In this document: piece after piece, positions 1,942 to 52,553 of the stretch | Layout: each line of letters begins with the position of its first letter | How positions within the stretch are numbered: the stretch's first letter is position 1 | Program-made: the position numbers and the translations under genes | Source of the DNA: a plasmid | DNA: 64,000 nucleotides | Direction: 5' to 3' (one strand) | NCBI RefSeq assembly: GCF_054482595.1 | Contig: NZ_JBTHVH010000001.1 | The notes under the pieces: model-generated | What the model was told of the DNA's origin: nothing | Database searches by the model: none | What the model saw: the letters and a program-made list of their open reading frames with translations, nothing else

Positions 1942-2124
1942 TATTTTTAAGTCGCGAATGCTATCTTTTTGCATCATATTGACCTTTTAATCGTTCAGGC
2001 TTATAGTTTCGCCGTCGTAGCAAATTCTGCGACCGGGTTTAGCAGCCTGAATGATTGTGCGGACAGCCGCAGATATCCGATATTGCGGTATTTTTGTGTC
2101 CGTAAAACTGCGTTACGCCCAAAT

Positions 2125-2205
2125 TATGGTGGGGCGTGATGGGGAGGCTTCGGCCTGCTGGTTTCACAATCGCCAGTCTGCTAACCCCGTCACGTCCTGC
2201 CACCT
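2125..2205 (+). ncRNA. c4: c4-like antisense RNA of immI module A (approximate boundaries)
   Basis: Lies between target-like site a1 (GATTGTG, 2053-2059) and a2 (GATTGTGA, 2237-2244, overlapping the icd Shine-Dalgarno); contains the complementary element TCACAATC (2164-2171). Confidence 0.45.
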
Positions 2206-2254
2206 GTTTAGCAGCGGGTAGCAGGTTGTTAAACCTGATTGTGAGGCCGTAACT

Positions 2255-2476
2255 ATGGTTAATGCCAATCCTTGCGCACGCCAAGAATTCATCTGGCGTT
2301 TCTATTCCTGCAAAAAACACCACTATCACTTCGTCATCGCAGCAACAGAAGACGAAGCACGCTCTCAATTGCCTGATGGCCCCTGCATTTTTACTGCCCG
2401 TTTTTCAACTAACTCGCGCAATTCACTTAGTTACTGGAACCTCCCCTTCTCTTCCGACGTTCAGGGGGTTTTATGA
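2255..2476 (+). CDS. icd: Icd-like small protein (73 aa), translationally coupled to ant
   Basis: 73-aa ORF whose stop overlaps the ant start (ATGA); position and size match P1 icd. Confidence 0.65.
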   Translation: MVNANPCARQEFIWRFYSCKKHHYHFVIAATEDEARSQLPDGPCIFTARFSTNSRNSLSYWNLPFSSDVQGVL

Positions 2477-3516
2477 AAAAACCTCTCGTCACCCGTAATG
2501 ACATAGCCGAAGCGATCGCACTGCATACTGCCTGTATGCCGACACGGGAGATCCCCGGCGCAATTGCCAACTATTTCATGATAACCAGACGTTTTTATAC
2601 CCGAACAGATAAGGCTGTGATCAACAGGCTACTGATAGCCGAGATCAGGGATTATTTGATTGAACAAGGACGTCTACGTTACGCAACGGTGGCAGCAGAA
2701 ATGAGAAAGGAGGCACATAGAATGACCAGTAATAATTTGAATGTTAAAAAACCAGCATCTGTTGCTTCAGCTACGCCATCACCAGCTGTGAATGTTATCT
2801 CCAACACTGGAGACACAATCGACAGCCAGACGCTGTTAAAGATGGTCAATGAAGCGCGTAAGTTATGTGGGGAACCAGAGGTTCGGAACAACAAATTCAT
2901 CAAAAAAATACTCGACGAATTAGAAGGTGAGGACGGTTACACAAAAAGTGCAACCGTGCCGCCAGGTGGCGGTACGCCTATGGTTGTCATAACCATGACC
3001 TACAAACAAGCCCTGCGAGTCGCCGCGCGCGAGTCAAAAGCAGTCCGCCGTTCGCTGATCGACAAACTGGAAGAATTGCAGCAGGCAAACTCCCCTGCCC
3101 CATCGATCCCCCAAACATTACCAGACGCTCTACGCCTGGCTGCCGAGTTGGCAGAACAGAAAATGCAGTTGGAACAACAGCTGGTGGCCGCAGCCCCTAA
3201 AGTCGATTTTGCCGACCGGGTATCAGCGGCTAATGGAATCCTGATCGGGAACTTTGCAAAGGTCGTTGGACTTAAGCAAAACGCCCTTTTCTCATGGTTG
3301 CGCCAGAACGGCATTCTCATGGCTTTTGGTGCGCGCAAAAACGTACCGCGCCAGCAGTACATTAACGCCGGGTATTTCACGGTGAAAGAAGTGGTGCTGG
3401 ATGATGAAAATGGCTACCAGATACGGCTGACGCCCCAATTAACGGGTAAAGGCCAGCAGTGGTTAACTCGCAAGCTACTTGATGCTGGTTTGTTAAAACC
3501 AGTAGCAATAGGTTAA
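2473..3516 (+). CDS. ant: antirepressor Ant (C-terminal KilAC-type domain)
   Basis: 347 aa; C-terminal PKVDFADRVS...GNFAKVVGLKQN...YFTVKE motif block typical of phage antirepressors; sits downstream of c4/icd and upstream of kilA as in P1. Confidence 0.75.
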   Translation: MKKPLVTRNDIAEAIALHTACMPTREIPGAIANYFMITRRFYTRTDKAVINRLLIAEIRDYLIEQGRLRYATVAAEMRKEAHRMTSNNLNVKKPASVASATPSPAVNVISNTGDTIDSQTLLKMVNEARKLCGEPEVRNNKFIKKILDELEGEDGYTKSATVPPGGGTPMVVITMTYKQALRVAARESKAVRRSLIDKLEELQQANSPAPSIPQTLPDALRLAAELAEQKMQLEQQLVAAAPKVDFADRVSAANGILIGNFAKVVGLKQNALFSWLRQNGILMAFGARKNVPRQQYINAGYFTVKEVVLDDENGYQIRLTPQLTGKGQQWLTRKLLDAGLLKPVAIG

Positions 3517-3679: not shown

Positions 3680-4480
3680 ATGCAACAAACATTCAATGCG
3701 GATATGAATATATCAAACCTTCATCAAAATGTCGATCCTTCAACCACTCTGCCCGTTATTTGTGGTGTTGAAATTACGACCGACCGCGCTGGCCGTTACA
3801 ACCTTAATGCTCTACACAGAGCGAGCGGACTCGGTGCCCATAAAGCGCCAGCTCAATGGCTAAGAACGCTGTCAGCTAAACAGCTCATCGAAGAGCTTGA
3901 AAAAGAAACTATGCAGAATTGCATAGTTTCGTTCGAAGGCCGTGGCGGCGGCACTTTTGCCCATGAATTGCTCGCAGTGGAGTACGCTGGTTGGATTTCT
4001 CCCGCGTTTCGGCTGAAGGTAAACCAGACATTTATCGACTATCGAGCCGGAAGATTACAACCTGCTATTCCGCAGAGTCTCCCTGAAGCTCTCCGTTTGG
4101 CTGCCGACCTGGCAGAGCAAAAGCAACGGCTGGAACAAAAAATGCTTATGGATGCACCTAAAGTCGAATTCGCCGAACGCGTTGCTACCGCCAGCGGGGT
4201 TCTAATCGGCAACTATGCCAAAGTGCTCGGTCTGGGCCAAAACTATCTCTTCACCTGGTTGCGTGATAACGGAATTCTGATCGCAACCGGTGAACGCAGG
4301 AACGTCCCCAAACAAGAATACATATCCCGTGGGTATTTCACCCTTAAAGAAACCGTGATCGATACAAGCAATGGAAGCAGGATTTCTTTCACGACTCGTA
4401 TAACCGGCAAAGGTCAGCAGTGGCTGATGAAGCGATTGCTTGATACTGGTGTGCTGGTACCTGTCGCGGCAACGCGCTAA
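3680..4480 (+). CDS. kilA: KilA (KilA-N plus KilAC domains)
   Basis: 266 aa; C-terminus paralogous to the Ant C-terminal domain; position upstream of repL. Confidence 0.7.
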   Translation: MQQTFNADMNISNLHQNVDPSTTLPVICGVEITTDRAGRYNLNALHRASGLGAHKAPAQWLRTLSAKQLIEELEKETMQNCIVSFEGRGGGTFAHELLAVEYAGWISPAFRLKVNQTFIDYRAGRLQPAIPQSLPEALRLAADLAEQKQRLEQKMLMDAPKVEFAERVATASGVLIGNYAKVLGLGQNYLFTWLRDNGILIATGERRNVPKQEYISRGYFTLKETVIDTSNGSRISFTTRITGKGQQWLMKRLLDTGVLVPVAATR

Positions 4481-4509
4481 CAGACGTAGTAAGAACCACC
4501 AGCATTGTA

Positions 4510-5355
4510 ATGCTGGCTAAAGTCACTTTCCTGAGCTGTATAACGATGAGCGATTTTACTTTTTCTGGCTATGAATTGGCCTGCTTTGTAACACACTCCG
4601 GTCTATCCCGTAGCGCCGGGCATATCCTGTCGCAATGTGCAAATCTAGCGGCAACAACCAGTGAATACTTCATTCACAAGCCTCACCGCCTGATCGCGGC
4701 AGAAACTGGTTATAGCCAATCAACCGTCGTTCGTGCATTCCGTGAAGCTGTAAACAAAGGAATTCTGTCTGTAGAGATTGTTATCGGCGATCACCGTGAA
4801 CGTCGCGCTAACCTGTACCGGTTTACACCATCCTTTTTGGCCTTCGCACAACAAGCCAAAAATGCGCTGATTGAAAGCAAATTAAAGATCTCTTCAGCGG
4901 CAACCAAGGTTAAAGCTGTTCTCGCTAAGACATTGGCTTTATTTAATTTTTTATCCACACCCCCATGTCAAAATGATACCCCCTCCCCCTGTCAGGATGA
5001 CGTGGCAATAAAGAATAAGAAGTCACAAGTTAAAAAAACAAAAAGATCAGTTTCCGGCGGTGCCGGAACGACCAGACTCAAAAAATTGACTTCATGGATC
5101 GCTGAGGCAAAAGCAAAGGCTGACAATCTGCGGTTATCCAAAAAACGCGCTCAAAAACATGAGTTCAAGCAGAAAGTAGAGGCGGCAGCGCGGAAATATG
5201 CTTACCTGAAGAACAAGCGTTCTCCTGATATTGACGGGGTATCAAACTTCGATAATTTGCCGCATTGCATGACGGTAAACGAAGCTCTTAATGCGGTTTT
5301 AGCCAAAAATAAAGATAACGAACAATGGGGTATACCGGCAGGATTCAGAGGGTAA
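4510..5355 (+). CDS. repL: lytic replication initiator RepL-like protein (oriL expected inside)
   Basis: 281 aa, follows kilA downstream of a C1 operator as in the P1 lytic replicon. Confidence 0.6.
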   Translation: MLAKVTFLSCITMSDFTFSGYELACFVTHSGLSRSAGHILSQCANLAATTSEYFIHKPHRLIAAETGYSQSTVVRAFREAVNKGILSVEIVIGDHRERRANLYRFTPSFLAFAQQAKNALIESKLKISSAATKVKAVLAKTLALFNFLSTPPCQNDTPSPCQDDVAIKNKKSQVKKTKRSVSGGAGTTRLKKLTSWIAEAKAKADNLRLSKKRAQKHEFKQKVEAAARKYAYLKNKRSPDIDGVSNFDNLPHCMTVNEALNAVLAKNKDNEQWGIPAGFRG

Positions 5356-5523
5356 TGAATTGTTCTAATTATAACCATGCATACTTTCAACGCCTCTAGT
5401 TTGCCATGAGGCAAACTCATAGGCGTCCTGGTAAGAGGGCACTGTTGCCAAAACTGGACGTCCCATTATTGCAATTAATAAACAACTAACGGACAATTCT
5501 ACCTAACAATAAGTGGAGTTAAC

Positions 5524-6228
5524 ATGTTGAACCGAAGAACATTTAATGTATTCTGCGATGAATCCTGTCACCTACTAAATGATCATAATAAAGTCATGGT
5601 ATTGGGTGCGCTTTGGTGCCCTGGCACTATCACAAAAAAAATTGCTAGAGACATCAAGGAATTAAAATTAAAACACAATCTAAAACCTGATTTCGAAATC
5701 AAGTGGACTAAAGTATCTGCGTCCAAGGTTGAATTTTACTTAGATGTCGTAGATTACTTCTTCAGCAACCCAGCATTGCGCTTTAGAGGTGTTGTTGTTC
5801 CTGATAAAGAGCAACTGGACCATGCTCGATTCCATCAAGATCATAATACTTTCTATTATAAGATGTTTTTTTATGTCTTAAAAAACATAATAGAAAGTAA
5901 CAACACATACAATATCTACCTAGATATAAAAGATACTTTAGGTATTGAAAAAATTGAGAAATTAAGAGGAGTTCTTCACAATGATCGCTATGATTACAAT
6001 CATGAGTCGATAAACAGAATTCAACATATACGATCTCATGAAGTGCAACAATTGCAGCTAACGGATCTTTTCATTGGTGCGTTAGGCTACGTTCATCGAG
6101 GAATGAATAGCAACGCGGGAAAAATCCAAGTCATAAACAGGATAAAATCACATACAAACAGGGATTTACTAAAAAGCACTCTTCCAACAGAAAGTAAATT
6201 TAATATTTTCGTGTGGGAGGCTCGCTGA
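5524..6228 (+). CDS. hypothetical protein with N-terminal F-C-D-E-S motif reminiscent of DUF3800-type proteins; AT-rich accessory gene
   Basis: ATG with GGAG Shine-Dalgarno; markedly AT-rich versus flanks; motif NVFCDESCH near N-terminus. Confidence 0.55.
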   Translation: MLNRRTFNVFCDESCHLLNDHNKVMVLGALWCPGTITKKIARDIKELKLKHNLKPDFEIKWTKVSASKVEFYLDVVDYFFSNPALRFRGVVVPDKEQLDHARFHQDHNTFYYKMFFYVLKNIIESNNTYNIYLDIKDTLGIEKIEKLRGVLHNDRYDYNHESINRIQHIRSHEVQQLQLTDLFIGALGYVHRGMNSNAGKIQVINRIKSHTNRDLLKSTLPTESKFNIFVWEAR

Positions 6229-6692
6229 TGCTTCAAATGCCAGATTTATTGTACTTCAATGGAAGTTGGCAAGAGTATATAGACGATGTATATTATGTTG
6301 TCAGAGAAGACATTTTAATCTCTAATATAACGTTTAAGGGTCTCCCTGTTCGGTTACGTTATTCACCGGAATATGATGGGAAAGAGTTCGGATTTTGGCA
6401 TTTAGTATCAGAGGGAAAAATAGAAGAAGAACGAATACCTGATCTTGAACGGTGTAAGCGGATCCGCTGGATCGCGCATATGATAAGGAATTATAACCAT
6501 TCCGATATATCATGTTGGTCTGAAAGACGAGGACCAACTGAAGAATGGGTAATCTGGAACGAGTGTGAAAACTACGTTGTTGTGCTATCCGCACGTAGAG
6601 ACTATTGGCTTCTTAAAACAGCCTATGTTGTAACCTATAACAGTAAAATCAGAACACTCAAACAAAGCAGAAAAAGAGCGCTTGGGACATAA
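6228..6692 (+). CDS. hypothetical protein, translationally coupled partner of the 5524 gene
   Basis: ATG overlaps upstream stop (TGATG); same AT-rich composition; track start at 6213 is a GTG, ATG at 6228 preferred. Confidence 0.5.
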   Translation: MLQMPDLLYFNGSWQEYIDDVYYVVREDILISNITFKGLPVRLRYSPEYDGKEFGFWHLVSEGKIEEERIPDLERCKRIRWIAHMIRNYNHSDISCWSERRGPTEEWVIWNECENYVVVLSARRDYWLLKTAYVVTYNSKIRTLKQSRKRALGT

Positions 6693-6858
6693 AAAAGCTG
6701 AACCCGACACATATTGCTATGTATCGGGTTCGATCGCTCTTTCTACACATGGTAGATGAGTAAGGCAAATCTAACCGATCTACTTTAGCTTTTCAATAGC
6801 TAGCTATAACTTTCCGCACATATTCTTCTGATAATTCCAGTATGGCTGTTGGGTTTTC

Positions 6859-7155
6859 TTATGCTTTTCTGCGCAGAGGTGCACATTTATTCAGCAACAA
6901 TAAATGTAATTCTTTGTTATTCCTAAGTATTTCGACACACCAATATCGTAACGTGTTCACTTCAAGTGTAGCCAGCACCTTATGTCGAAGTCCTCCCTCC
7001 CCTGCACATAACGATGACTGACATTCTGCTAAGGCACATAACCATGTATTGGCATCATAGAGAATCCAATAATGCTCCTCTGAAATAGTTTTGCATCCAA
7101 TTATTTCGAATCTTCGTTCTATCGTTTCAGGAGAGTATGAAAAATCAATTTCCAT
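6859..7155 (-). CDS. hypothetical small protein (98 aa)
   Basis: ORF on minus strand between the AT-rich module and the late block. Confidence 0.4.
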   Translation of the reverse strand: MEIDFSYSPETIERRFEIIGCKTISEEHYWILYDANTWLCALAECQSSLCAGEGGLRHKVLATLEVNTLRYWCVEILRNNKELHLLLLNKCAPLRRKA

Positions 7156-7193
7156 AATATGCTCAAAATTTCGCTATACCAGCATAATTTAAG

Positions 7194-7223
7194 CACAAAA
7201 AAAGCTCCCGCAGGAGCTTTAAA
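7194..7223 (-). terminator. rho-independent terminator ending the minus-strand late operon
   Basis: Hairpin AAGCTCC-TGCG-GGAGCTT followed by T-run on the minus strand. Confidence 0.6.
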
Positions 7224-7239
7224 ATACAAGGGATGACTC

Positions 7240-7749
7240 TTAATCCCACTCAATCCAGTTGTAAACGATACGAAGTGACGGGCGCACAGCGGCAGTCACA
7301 TCTTCGGTACTAAAGTCGATTGCATCACTGTAGATTTTGCAGTCCAACATTTCAATTGTTGTAGCAGCTTTTGTCACAGCGTTAACCCCGGAAGATTTGG
7401 ATTCAGGGGTCGCAGCCATCGTGATATCAACATAGTCCTTCGCCGCAATGCGATCCTTGATGAACTGAAGAATATCGCCTTCGATAGTCTCCACGCACTG
7501 GACCTGGATTTCCCCAGAGTTTCGAATTGGTCCGTGCTGGTTGAACTTCACACCATTCGGACCATAGTCCTCCACATCCTCGCGGGTCATTTCAGGAATT
7601 TGCGACGTGCGAACCAGTACGCTGATATCTTCATGGCCTGCAAAAGTGAGCTGGAATTCAGAAGATACCAGTCGTTCGCCTTTGGCCGCGTTGGCAGTAT
7701 AGCGGCCCTTAATAAATTTACGGTTTCCCTTAGTGTTATTGTGCCCCAT
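7240..7749 (-). CDS. late virion/tail morphogenesis protein (169 aa)
   Basis: Last gene of the minus-strand late block downstream of the sheath-like gene. Confidence 0.45.
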   Translation of the reverse strand: MGHNNTKGNRKFIKGRYTANAAKGERLVSSEFQLTFAGHEDISVLVRTSQIPEMTREDVEDYGPNGVKFNQHGPIRNSGEIQVQCVETIEGDILQFIKDRIAAKDYVDITMAATPESKSSGVNAVTKAATTIEMLDCKIYSDAIDFSTEDVTAAVRPSLRIVYNWIEWD

Positions 7750-7760
7750 ATAAAATCCTT

Positions 7761-8342
7761 TTACTGGAACGCCCGAACAATATCGGAGCTGTTATATATC
7801 GAAGAACCGGTCAACTGGAGGTTGACGGTGTTTTTCAGGAAATGCCCATTGCTGTCCCTGGGCGCATCGAGATCGAAACTTATGTCCTGGATAGCGACAT
7901 CAATGATGTTGATCCGGCGACCAATGTTTAGCGTCACACGCTCCGGGATTCGACCACCAATACTGGCATCTTTAAGTTCCGGGCTAATCATCGCTGACAA
8001 TGCGGCGATAGCTCCTGAAACCTCCGTGAATGGGTCAAACAAAGCGATGAAAGTTACTGGCAGCGTGAAAGTCGGCGGTGTTCCCCCTTCCCAAACCATT
8101 AAGCTGTTCCAACGGGCAACCGACGTTGTTTCAGTACCAACCTGCGCAAAACCACTGAAGGCACCAGCAACAGATCCCATGGACATACCGGTAAACGGCG
8201 CTTCCCAATTCTGGGCCATGTTCATTGCCGCTCCCTGGCTGATATATCCGGTAACCTGGTACTGAGAGTTCGTTAAAGTAACTTTCAGATATGGCGATAC
8301 ACCGTCAGCCTGGCTGTAAACCCCATAAGGTATAGGTGCCAT
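7761..8342 (-). CDS. late virion/tail morphogenesis protein (193 aa)
   Basis: Tightly packed in the late operon. Confidence 0.45.
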   Translation of the reverse strand: MAPIPYGVYSQADGVSPYLKVTLTNSQYQVTGYISQGAAMNMAQNWEAPFTGMSMGSVAGAFSGFAQVGTETTSVARWNSLMVWEGGTPPTFTLPVTFIALFDPFTEVSGAIAALSAMISPELKDASIGGRIPERVTLNIGRRINIIDVAIQDISFDLDAPRDSNGHFLKNTVNLQLTGSSIYNSSDIVRAFQ

Positions 8343-8377
8343 TCAAGTTAAAGGCCGGAGTTCTCCGGCCTCCTCCT

Positions 8378-9193
8378 TTAGCCAAGGCGCTTACGGCGCA
8401 GTTTCATTGACTTTTTGCGGGCAAGTTTTGCCGCGCCGGTCTGGGCTTTTCGACGCGCTTTTTTCAGCGCCGATTTTTGAGCCGCAGTCAGACGTTTTTT
8501 ACGCAGGCGTTTACGGATGAGTTTGATCTCACCGTTACGAACAACCTTCTTAAATGCTTCAGTCAGCATTTCATCAGAAGTGCCAGCAACAACAAACGCC
8601 GCTTCCAGTTCGTCGCGGTCGTCGCTATCTAAACCAGCGATAGAGGCACCAACATCAGCAGCAGCGTCGTCGTCTTCATCGTCAGCCAGTGCTTCGATCA
8701 GGTCATCATCTACACCGCATGCTGCGAGGAAGTCAGCAACATTTGCCCATGCTTCGTTATAGGCATCGTCCTGTTCTTCTGTAACTTCGGAGTCGTCGTC
8801 ATCAGAGATACCAGCGATAGCCTGAACGAAACCATCAAGGGAGTCGAAAGTCAGATCACCGCTATCAGCCCAGGCGAAAACGGCGTCGGCCGCATCACTC
8901 AACGCATTCTGCATAGCACTTCGATTTGCAGCTTCCAGAATCATCTGGTGCGCCTGTTCGACGGTCCATTCTTTACCGTCTTTCCCTTCCAGGATTTGCT
9001 CAGGAGCCGGGGCAGATGGAACGTTATCGTTAGTCTGTGCCGCCGGTTCCGGATTATTATTAATAACCGGATCTGTTGGCGGTTCGGCGCTTGCTCGGGC
9101 AGACTCCATCAGCTGCACAGGATCAGAGTTCAAAGCGAAACGGGACAGTCCATTCCCCAAAAATGCCCCGGATTGAAAAAAGTTTTTGCTCAT
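8378..9193 (-). CDS. late protein with strongly acidic body and lysine/arginine-rich C-terminal tail (271 aa)
   Basis: Asp/Glu-rich runs followed by a basic C-terminal tail; directly downstream of the sheath-like gene. Confidence 0.45.
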   Translation of the reverse strand: MSKNFFQSGAFLGNGLSRFALNSDPVQLMESARASAEPPTDPVINNNPEPAAQTNDNVPSAPAPEQILEGKDGKEWTVEQAHQMILEAANRSAMQNALSDAADAVFAWADSGDLTFDSLDGFVQAIAGISDDDDSEVTEEQDDAYNEAWANVADFLAACGVDDDLIEALADDEDDDAAADVGASIAGLDSDDRDELEAAFVVAGTSDEMLTEAFKKVVRNGEIKLIRKRLRKKRLTAAQKSALKKARRKAQTGAAKLARKKSMKLRRKRLG

Positions 9194-23858: not shown

Positions 23859-23934
23859 GATGGTGTAGCTCAGCGGTTAGAGCGGTTGACTGTTAATCAA
23901 CGGGTCGATGGTTCAAATCCATCCACCATCGCCA
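23859..23934 (+). tRNA. tRNA-Asn (anticodon GTT)
   Basis: Manual cloverleaf: acceptor GATGGTG/CACCATC, D arm GCTC-AGCGGTTA-GAGC, anticodon loop CTGTTAA, T arm GATGG-TTCAAAT-CCATC, CCA encoded. Confidence 0.85.
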
Positions 23935-23936
23935 AT

Positions 23937-24012
23937 GCCGGTTTAGCTCAGTTGGTAGAGCGCCTGCCTTGTAAGCAGGATGTCAGCGGTTCGAGTCCGT
24001 TAATCGGCACCA
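23937..24012 (+). tRNA. tRNA-Thr (anticodon TGT)
   Basis: Acceptor GCCGGTT/AATCGGC (one G-U), anticodon loop CTTGTAA, T loop TTCGAGT, CCA encoded. Confidence 0.8.
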
Positions 24013-25816: not shown

Positions 25817-25892
25817 GGCCCTTTAGCTCAGTGGTTAGAGCTGGCGACTCATAATCGCACGGTCACCGGTTCAAGTCCGGTAGGGGCCACCA
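25817..25892 (+). tRNA. tRNA-Ile2 (anticodon CAT, lysidine type; Met not excluded)
   Basis: Sequence closely resembles E. coli ileX as recalled; acceptor GGCCCTT/AGGGGCC, anticodon loop CTCATAA, T loop TTCAAGT. Confidence 0.75.
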
Positions 25893-52234: not shown

Positions 52235-52424
52235 TGTTTTTTAACTACCGATGTTACATTGAACCTGACCTCTTGCGCCTTGAGGCATTTTCGGTTTATG
52301 CTTATCAGGCACCTCAGTAAAACGGGTGCCGGGATTGGCCTCCCGCTTAAGTCTAAGGCGATACAGACGCCGCTCGCGTCTTTTTTTTGTATCGGCGTAC
52401 ACGCACACCTCTACAATGGTGGGC

Positions 52425-52497
52425 TGTATGGGGCTACCTTCGGGTAGGCTGGTTACCTTGGACGCCAGTAAGGCCAACTCCGTACAGTCCACCGCCA
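52425..52497 (+). ncRNA. c4-like antisense RNA of module B (approximate)
   Basis: Alignable with module A c4 region; specificity element ACCTTGGAC (52455-52463) complementary, with one G-U, to GTCTAAGG at 52351-52358 and 52535-52542. Confidence 0.4.
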
Positions 52498-52553
52498 GCA
52501 AGATTGGTCTCTTCTGCGGTGGTTACATACCAACGTCTAAGGAGGCTGCCAAT

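Follow-up and report, generated by a model that had tools for sequence, protein, structure and literature searches.

The window, as we call the whole 64,000-nucleotide (64 kb) stretch of plasmid DNA analysed here (contig NZ_JBTHVH010000001.1), is DNA of a P1-like phage-plasmid. Its positions 5,524 to 6,692 are occupied by two overlapping genes which, on the evidence of DNA identity and gene order, are rlfA and rlfB of phage P1 itself, genes that have long been named and known. Positions 5300-7000 display 96.9-97.5% DNA identity to rlfA/rlfB of P1, rapA/rapB of P7 and phage JL22 (megablast, 99-100% coverage), and the synteny is the same as in P1, with ant, kilA, repL, the C1 operator, rlfA, rlfB, pmgF and bplB following each other. 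The module is completed by a gene for a small RNA (sRNA), and the two proteins together with this RNA probably represent mobile cargo that serves in defence or addiction. Its components, and the cassette on which they reside, are as follows.

5370..7196, no strand assigned: replaceable AT-rich cassette (G+C fraction 0.375) between the repL and bplB blocks, carrying rlfA, rlfB, the sRNA gene and pmgF
5524..6228, + strand: rlfA, the first of two overlapping open reading frames (ORFs), encoding a DUF3800 protein of 234 aa
6228..6692, + strand: rlfB, encoding the partner protein of RlfA, 154 aa from the ATG
6690..6761, - strand: unannotated sRNA gene of approximately 60-70 nt, convergent with rlfB

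The rlfAB pair, its cassette and its proteins

The rlfA/rlfB junction reads GCTCGCTGATGCTT, in which one base (A) is common to the TGA stop and the ATG start, and the same 1-nt stop/start overlap is annotated in the P1 record; an in-frame GTG at 6213, upstream of the ATG, is an alternative start that would extend RlfB to 159 aa. Both genes are clearly AT-rich, the overall G+C fraction being 0.350 in rlfA, 0.389 in rlfB and 0.366 when the two are taken together, whereas the window averages 0.476 and the neighbours have values of 0.452 for repL, 0.484 for bplB and approximately 0.51 for gp21 and gp22. As AT-rich as the pair are only 0.36% of all 1169-nt segments within the 64 kb, and the G+C content at third codon positions is 0.34 in both genes versus 0.43-0.54 in their neighbours. 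The low-GC tract runs on to approximately 7196, so that it takes in pmgF. The initial annotation of this DNA had given the positions and lengths of the two ORFs exactly, and the TGATG coupling and the AT-richness relative to the flanks that it described are both found here; its two-gene module stands for the two genes on the + strand and missed a third part, the sRNA gene located downstream on the opposite strand.

When the window is compared by blastn with the P1-like elements phi456, RCS47 and 673R5, homology is found solely at 4400-5369 and 7197-8400, with the cassette borders at 5369/5370 and 7196/7197. The content of the slot varies among these three elements, being comprised of approximately 0.7 kb without an rlfAB or pmgF homologue (two short annotated ORFs), of an insertion sequence and an unrelated ORF, or of a different ORF; phi456, which has no cassette, is an isolated phage. 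The rlfAB pair was found in 8 of 19 matching phage records, the other 11 matching only over the last 70 nt of repL, and in 101 of the 516 plasmids with repL in PLSDB (approximately 20%). In one paper the same stretch figures as variable region 5 of the P1-like phage-plasmids (PMC9603915), and both the variability and the low GC content of rlfAB-pmgF among P1-like elements had been noted before (PMC9603915, PMC6906374). Since other P1-like elements lack the cassette or have replaced it, and since the pair is also AT-rich relative to its host DNA in nearly all unrelated loci, rlfAB is, judged from these comparisons, horizontally acquired cargo and not part of the backbone. The origin proposed in the initial annotation, a horizontally acquired moron between backbone genes, is thereby upheld. 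A pair common to all P1-like genomes and having an assigned housekeeping role, which according to that annotation would have spoken against a novel system, is not what was encountered, given its presence in a fifth of the repL plasmids and a role label that is positional. This label, "possibly associated with lytic replication", is the one attached to rlfA/rlfB in the P1 record (AF234172), and both it and the rlf name derive from the position beside the lytic replicon and not from a tested function. No functional study of rlfA/rlfB was found in the literature searched, and in a genome-wide CRISPR interference (CRISPRi) screen of P1 both genes scored as non-essential (PMC10695390).

RlfA matches the Pfam family DUF3800 (PF12686) with E = 5.2e-14 over residues 8-189, in agreement with the DUF3800 likeness initially suggested for the first protein, and the F-C-D-E-S motif seen at its N-terminus corresponds to residues 10-14. 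Across 37 homologues (52-87% identity) no variation is seen at D12, E13, D134, D137, Q178 or D181, giving the layout D12 E13 ... D134 (K136 D137) ... Q178xxD181 (Q178-L-T-D181). The protein matches RNase HII/H2-like nucleases at the level of the fold, which is RNase H-like, and the invariant D12, E13, D134 (and D137) and D181, located on the expected secondary-structure elements, may correspond to the four active-site carboxylates (DEDD) of such enzymes. For DUF3800 a D-E ... QxxD motif and similarity to RNase H2 were reported in connection with the retron type VII proteins (PMC7736814), and the D12-E13 ... QxxD pattern of RlfA agrees with that description. RlfA is probably an RNase HII-like, metal-dependent nuclease, and belongs to a large family (5461 matches) that shows more than 50% identity across phyla.

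RlfB, in which no motif had been recognised at first sight, is matched by no Pfam family at a threshold of E <= 10. Nothing usable was obtained from NCBIfam, from PDB sequence searches or, for RlfB, from Foldseek against the PDB. The predicted structure of RlfB (pLDDT, the predicted local distance difference test score, of 92.4) is of the alpha/beta type, with helices at the N-terminus, an antiparallel sheet of four strands and a helix at the C-terminus. Its best structural neighbours are tRNA- and mRNA-cleaving toxins (RelE/colicin-D-type RNases, BECR fold); the likeness is weak, and the possible designation of RlfB as RNase-toxin-like is a lead and not a result. The family comprises 1829 representatives at 50% identity from more than 15 phyla, nearly all of them stand-alone proteins of 150-180 aa. 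Over 147 diverse representatives H58 is conserved in 100% and R75 in 98%, while F56, P5, W97, W81, R69 and R78 each exceed 90%, and the conserved polar core consists of H58, R69, R75 and R78. RlfB is listed in databases as "oxidoreductase" (NCBI) and as "replication protein" (RefSeq, PHROG 16230), and no support for either name was found. Several loci are in decay, with rlfA intact and rlfB carrying a nonsense mutation or a truncation (L008/L009 and L028/L029); the rlfB of L008/L009 (Methylomonas, 8633-9175) has an in-frame stop, and there are P1-like copies in which rlfB is cut at residue 82. Natural RlfA-RlfB fusions were considered as evidence for an interaction and were too thin to use: in L037 (6695-7555) a deletion joins RlfA residues 1-113 to RlfB, and in P0304, a single metagenomic fragment, the C-terminus of RlfA runs in frame into RlfB.

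A small RNA gene beside rlfB and its copies in phages

DNA homology between the P1 module and a 73%-identical module of Enterobacter sets in 10 nt ahead of the rlfA start and continues to approximately 70 nt past the rlfB stop, and the conserved element in this tail surfaced when rlfB 3' tails from very distant loci were aligned. The sRNA gene of the window displays the following parts.

6768..6796, - strand: sigma-70-like promoter, TTGAAA-17-TAGATT, with 7 nt between its -10 element and the hairpin (promoter scan)
6760-6737, - strand: conserved 5' hairpin of 24 nt, CUCAUCUACCAUGUGUAGAAAGAG, followed by a 5-nt linker and then the terminator
6731-6700, - strand: GC-rich terminator hairpin (terminator scan, RNA folds)
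6699-6690, - strand: U-run, overlapping the rlfB stop codon

The 5' hairpin shows covariation: among 17 RlfAB-linked sequences 98.5% of the cells are paired and compensatory changes occur in four of the eight pairs, the covariation score was not reached by any of 500 shuffles, and slid controls collapse. A covariance model of the hairpin (R1) detects one site in the 64-kb window, at 43.9 bits. Each RlfAB locus searched likewise has one site, located next to rlfB, and the P1-like elements without rlfAB have none. Transcription signals accompany the hairpin, with a promoter (at least 9 of 12 consensus matches, its end 7-9 nt away from the hairpin) upstream of it in 67 of 92 distinct RlfAB-linked RNA loci versus 4 of 92 shuffled controls, the promoter sequences themselves being different, and with a terminator in 71 of the 92 loci and a median RNA length of approximately 61 nt.

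Scanning one genome per bacterial species with the hairpin pattern gave at least 120 matches; among the matches listed are Chloroflexota, Bacteroidota, Nitrospirota, Planctomycetota, Chlamydiota, Proteobacteria, Spirochaetota, Firmicutes, Actinobacteria, Omnitrophota, Verrucomicrobiota and others, more than 15 phyla in all. Again among the matches listed, 80 of 102 decidable hairpins are located at a median of 36.5 nt from the rlfB 3' end, 68 in convergent and 10 in co-directional orientation. Given this variable orientation, what is conserved is the adjacency and the hairpin, and not an antisense overlap. The sequence of the 24-nt 5' hairpin is kept across phyla and its flanks are not. On these signals, the sRNA can be considered as a separately transcribed gene tied to rlfAB, with a 5' hairpin that is almost invariant across bacterial phyla. 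It is not annotated in the P1 or P7 records, and a cmscan of positions 5000-7400 against Rfam 15 returned no match at E <= 10; likewise, no Rfam model reached its gathering score in eleven RlfAB loci, although the DUF3800-VIII and skipping-rope models do match elsewhere. Two other explanations of the element were rejected, namely a small ORF starting at the AUG in the loop (this AUG is not conserved) and a Shine-Dalgarno function of the hairpin's AAGGAG (the sequence is AAAGAG in enterobacterial copies, and there is no start codon after it). A mimicry of an anticodon arm was considered as well; the loop is without tRNA-like features.

The hairpin also occurs apart from the two proteins. In IMG/VR the pattern was found on at least 120 contigs, and among the matches listed RlfAB is located beside the hairpin in only 13 of the 66 that are decidable. 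No protein neighbour is shared by the orphan RNAs beyond the kinship of the phages themselves. Several orphan hairpins directly abut tRNA genes in phage tRNA arrays (L052, L055, L063, L070/L077, L086, L094 and L105), some of them beginning 2-10 nt after the 3' end of a tRNA. In SPbeta-like contigs of approximately 125 kb, including L045 (203-451), L072, L113, L057, L108 and others, two related hairpin RNAs, each with its own terminator, form a tandem that is followed at a distance of 100-170 nt by an Rfam DUF3800-VIII RNA, and no DUF3800 protein is encoded within approximately 5 kb; L113 additionally shows a weak skipping-rope match. The structure of DUF3800-VIII differs from that of the rlfB-linked hairpin RNA and is much more complex. 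Weinberg et al. 2017 (PMC5737381) described, without explanation, eleven unrelated RNA motifs that lie beside DUF3800 genes, their orientation to the gene being variable and terminators being frequent among them, and a later paper on the function of DUF3800-associated RNAs was not found in the literature searched. The rlfB-linked RNA behaves like a twelfth motif of this kind, tied to the RlfA subfamily and RlfB.

Genomic company and neighbouring features

In PADLOC both proteins match over their full length, RlfA to PDC-M04A (1.2e-95) and RlfB to PDC-M04B (2.5e-51), and with the genes being adjacent, rlfAB is by these profile matches the defence candidate PDC-M04. No tests of PDC-M04 or rlfAB were found in the literature searched. 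The initial expectation of an undescribed system has to be given up, the pair being P1 rlfA/rlfB (97% DNA identity) and already a PADLOC candidate. The class it suggested (exclusion, abortive infection or anti-defence) fared better, as the genomic company points to defence, and both the horizontal origin and the probable class of function were right.

The linkage of the three components is strict: RlfA is encoded directly upstream of RlfB, with ORFs overlapping or abutting, in every locus retrieved through either protein. Individual loci are located within restriction-modification operons, next to other defence genes or beside integrases. At one end of an Enterobacter prophage RlfAB directly follows the integrase; the pair lies between hsdS and hsdR in Methylomonas, and is found beside an island integrase in Burkholderia, while the order in Algoriphagus is hsdM, AbiP2, RlfA, RlfB, hsdR, an unknown gene and pAgo. 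Among the IMG/VR loci, L034 reads hsdR-hsdS-hsdM-RlfAB, L031 has RlfAB directly after hsdS, and in others the pair adjoins SoFic and an integrase, or serine/tyrosine integrases. Type I restriction-modification genes were present within 5 kb in at least 21 of 53 loci with enough flank from a separate sample of bacterial genomes, a lower bound that was obtained by crude BLAST with nine reference proteins. The GC content of the pair is below that of its host contig in nearly all loci, a signature of mobile defence cargo. On the Enterobacter ludwigii chromosome (L003, 9451-9741) the prophage with the 87%-identical module terminates beside three clustered tRNA genes, which follow integrase, RlfAB and sRNA in this order. 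A role of the module as a retron type VII effector, considered for the reverse transcriptase (RT) encoded upstream of the Algoriphagus homologue, was rejected, as this RT is a stand-alone AbiP2.

Three further features belong to the region of the cassette in the window.

5358..5374, + strand: weak C1 repressor operator, the equivalent of P1 Orlf/Op55, sequence ATTGTTCTAATTATAAC (P1 and P7 annotation, alignment)
5469..5497, + strand: predicted sigma-70 promoter PrlfA, TTGCAA-17-GACAAT, kept in P1 and P7 (P1 annotation moved over by alignment)
6859..7155, - strand: pmgF, 98 aa, a passenger of the P1 cassette (P1 annotation)

All P1-like elements keep ...GATTGCTCTAAT and then diverge at once, the homology to those without the cassette ending at 5369, and the left breakpoint falls just past the core of the C1 operator (ATTGCTCTAAT), which is kept by every P1-like element. 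Because it is also present where the cassette is absent, the operator is a feature of the backbone and was not brought by rlfAB. The copy in the window has one C-to-T change in the core relative to P1, and a consensus scan allowing up to three mismatches did not match it at 5358..5374. The predicted PrlfA is not overlapped by the operator. With the breakpoint located directly after the operator core at 5358-5370, any cargo in the slot sits behind a repressor-binding site. pmgF is outside the conserved module, since DNA homology ends before it, at 6761 with the module of the Enterobacter prophage and at 6775 with L027, and it has no PADLOC match.

Elsewhere in the window three C4 antisense RNA genes were found, at 2122-2207 (+), 52412-52499 (+) and 58868-58953 (-), together with two a1/b1 target sites and an isrK-like RNA, and with an additional coordinate listed at 52309-52386 (+). 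The immI region of P1 has one c4, and the three genes suggest extra immunity/antirepressor modules or a second element in the window. Three tRNA genes are located at 23859-24009 and 25817-25889 (+), as expected for a P1-like genome. The Ant-like (2473-3516, +) and KilA-like (3680-4480, +) proteins have closely related C-terminal halves (…LPEALRLAA(E/D)LAEQK…GILI…GKGQQWL…), a likeness that points to internal duplication or to domain sharing in the immI/kilA region.

Possible roles of the module

Within the probable reading as mobile defence or addiction cargo, a fuller one, for which the balance is slightly unfavourable and which we put forward tentatively, takes rlfAB for an RNA-controlled module of the toxin-antitoxin or abortive-infection type with a toxic nuclease activity. 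The sRNA, produced constitutively, would attach via its conserved hairpin to the nuclease pair RlfA/RlfB and would thereby keep the pair inactive or set its specificity. Infection, a shut-off of transcription or the loss of the element would upset this balance, and the nuclease activity so released would act on RNA or on RNA-DNA hybrids, with the outcome that a competing phage would be stopped (abortive infection) or a plasmid-free cell would be killed (post-segregational killing). The hairpin copies that phages carry without the proteins in their tRNA/sRNA arrays would act as decoys and hold the system in its off state. Arrays of orphan RNAs in which two DUF3800-linked RNA classes are combined fit the expectation for decoys, and loci with a broken rlfB and an intact rlfA are expected if RlfB supplies the harmful activity; both observations are circumstantial. 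A more far-reaching proposal, which we consider doubtful, is that RlfA, RlfB and the hairpin sRNA constitute an undescribed ribonucleoprotein immune module, made up of an RNase H/PIWI-like nuclease and a His/Arg partner under the control of a universally conserved small RNA, which phages would counter with protein-less copies, in their tRNA/sRNA arrays, of this RNA and of other DUF3800-linked RNAs such as DUF3800-VIII.

The working analogy is with the type III toxin-antitoxin systems. In ToxIN a nuclease is restrained by a small RNA, and phages can escape by means of pseudo-ToxI. Common features would be a nuclease checked by an adjacent small RNA, carriage on mobile elements, and phages with the RNA alone. 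In type III systems, however, a tandem-repeat RNA is located upstream of the toxin with a terminator in between, whereas the rlfAB RNA is a single hairpin with its own promoter, located downstream and convergent in 68 of 78 genome loci among the matches listed, and so does not conform to type III anatomy; moreover, rlfAB has two proteins, one of them RNase H-like, unlike ToxIN, and the searches gave neither a sequence match nor a significant fold match to ToxN-type toxins. PrrC and RloC are RNases embedded in type I restriction-modification loci, and RlfAB homologues are likewise found repeatedly between hsdS/hsdM and hsdR, with the weak structural neighbours of RlfB, tRNA- and mRNA-cleaving toxins, recalling these enzymes; rlfAB differs in having no sequence similarity to them and no ATPase domain, in having an RNA partner, and in the lack of a type I system alongside it in P1. 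Retron type VII (RT and DUF3800) shares with the module an RNase H2-like DUF3800 protein having an N-terminal D-E, plus a non-coding nucleic acid (PMC7736814), but RlfA keeps the QxxD that is absent from the retron-linked proteins, the cassette contains no RT ORF, and PADLOC matched RlfA only to PDC-M04A and PDC-S51 and to no retron model. The DUF3800-associated RNAs (DUF3800-I to -XI, drum and skipping-rope) resemble the case described here in that a structured RNA with a terminator lies beside a DUF3800 gene in either orientation, and DUF3800-VIII shares phage sRNA arrays with the rlfB-linked hairpin RNA; the latter differs in having no match in Rfam 15 and in being tied to a two-protein module and not to DUF3800 alone. 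The PDC-M04 definition itself, a computational candidate, consists of two proteins and has no RNA component, unlike rlfAB with its sRNA, and P1 rlfA/rlfB (P7 rapA/rapB) are the same genes with the same neighbours, at 96.9% DNA identity over the module and with one operator-core base different. The module therefore fits no named family, being outside the anatomy of type III toxin-antitoxin and retron type VII systems and having an RNA outside the Rfam DUF3800 models, and is placed with the toxin-antitoxin/abortive-infection kind and not in a separate category.

Several points weigh against an RNA-controlled module of this kind. Defence, toxicity and RNA binding are deductions in the case of rlfAB, and other PADLOC candidates failed when tested (PMC12409345); of those tested in published papers, some protect and some do not. 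The C1 operator just upstream in P1 might mean that the genes are expressed mainly during lytic growth, which would fit a benefit to the phage better than protection of the lysogen; on the other hand, this operator is a weak backbone feature and lies clear of the predicted promoter. Phages that have no RlfAB commonly carry the hairpin RNA (53 of the 66 decidable IMG/VR matches listed), and the RNA could have a general role unrelated to RlfAB. Finally, the arrangement of one RNA copy with its own promoter, located downstream and usually convergent, is unlike that of the known RNA-antitoxin systems.

The alternatives bear on these same observations. That RlfA and RlfB assist RepL in lytic replication, for example by processing a transcript or R-loop that activates oriL, could be suggested by the position of rlfAB directly after repL/oriL with the C1 operator before them, by the RlfA fold match, RNase H-type enzymes being processors of RNA-DNA hybrids, by the induction of rlfA and rlfB along with repL in P1vir infection (bioRxiv 10.64898/2025.12.28.696737), and by the name "replication protein" given to RlfB in PHROG and RefSeq. 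We judge this most improbable: the name is positional, approximately 80% of repL plasmids as well as plaque-forming P1-like phages do without the pair, both genes are non-essential in the CRISPRi screen (PMC10695390), the operator is kept also without the cassette, and none of the unrelated loci examined in detail adjoins a replication gene, restriction-modification operons or prophage ends being found instead. Very little probability is likewise given to the downstream element being a mere terminator or recombination boundary, with the module a plain two-protein system. Its second hairpin is a typical intrinsic terminator, which in P1 would also end pmgF or late transcripts, and the hairpin is found in many places without RlfAB; a bare terminator, however, needs neither a hairpin sequence that is kept across phyla unlike its flanks and that shows compensatory changes, nor a positionally fixed sigma-70-type promoter at the frequency seen over the shuffled controls, nor a constant adjacency to rlfB in either orientation.

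Somewhat less improbable, and still unlikely, is a counter-defence function of the phage, by which the pair and the sRNA, expressed early in lytic growth, would eliminate or titrate some component of host immunity, for example the multicopy single-stranded DNA of retrons, guide RNAs or signalling nucleic acids, with the orphan RNAs acting alike. Phage tRNA arrays are linked to the evasion of tRNA-targeting defences, and the abundance of the hairpin RNA in phage genomes, including such arrays, the location of rlfAB in the early region downstream of a C1-controlled operon, and the occurrence of DUF3800 domains in retron type VII and Cas12a2-associated proteins, which so meet immune nucleic acids, could all be accommodated. 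Most modules having both proteins and the RNA are nevertheless spread over many bacterial phyla, in chromosomes and in metagenome-assembled genomes, often within type I restriction-modification operons or dense defence islands, where defence and not anti-defence genes gather, and it was from such contexts that PADLOC derived PDC-M04. We attach a similarly low probability to pure plasmid addiction without an anti-phage role, in which RlfAB would be the stable toxin and the sRNA the labile antitoxin, and the maintenance of the P1 prophage plasmid, as of other mobile elements, would depend on the two. The toxin-antitoxin-like organisation with an independently transcribed sRNA, the presence of the module on plasmids, prophages and islands, and the loci with inactivated rlfB and intact rlfA would agree with it, but many copies reside in restriction-modification operons of chromosomes, a setting without an obvious need for addiction, and P1 already has phd-doc. 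The phd and doc genes are among the conserved genes of P1 (PMC9603915). Addiction is partly a sub-case of the reading preferred here, mobile cargo for defence or addiction, as the two functions are not mutually exclusive.

The gene names (P1 rlfAB) and the listing as a candidate (PDC-M04) are already known. Not found in the sources searched were the cassette borders, the assignment of RlfB by structure, and the obligatory sRNA gene with the orphan copies of it that phages carry. The rlfA and rlfB genes have long carried a name implying a role in replication that nobody tested, and the pair is optional cargo of a type that usually encodes immunity or addiction. The family is very widespread (1829 RlfB clusters), and its sRNA, which is in no record or RNA-family database, accompanies rlfB in every RlfAB locus searched. 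The P1 cassette brings a DUF3800 protein-RNA partnership into E. coli on a well-studied phage-plasmid. If the ribonucleoprotein immune module were confirmed, it would provide a first function for the DUF3800-associated RNAs, unexplained since 2017, and would identify a class of phage anti-defence RNA decoys; if the orphan RNAs are such decoys, some of the non-tRNA genes in phage tRNA arrays would be partly explained.

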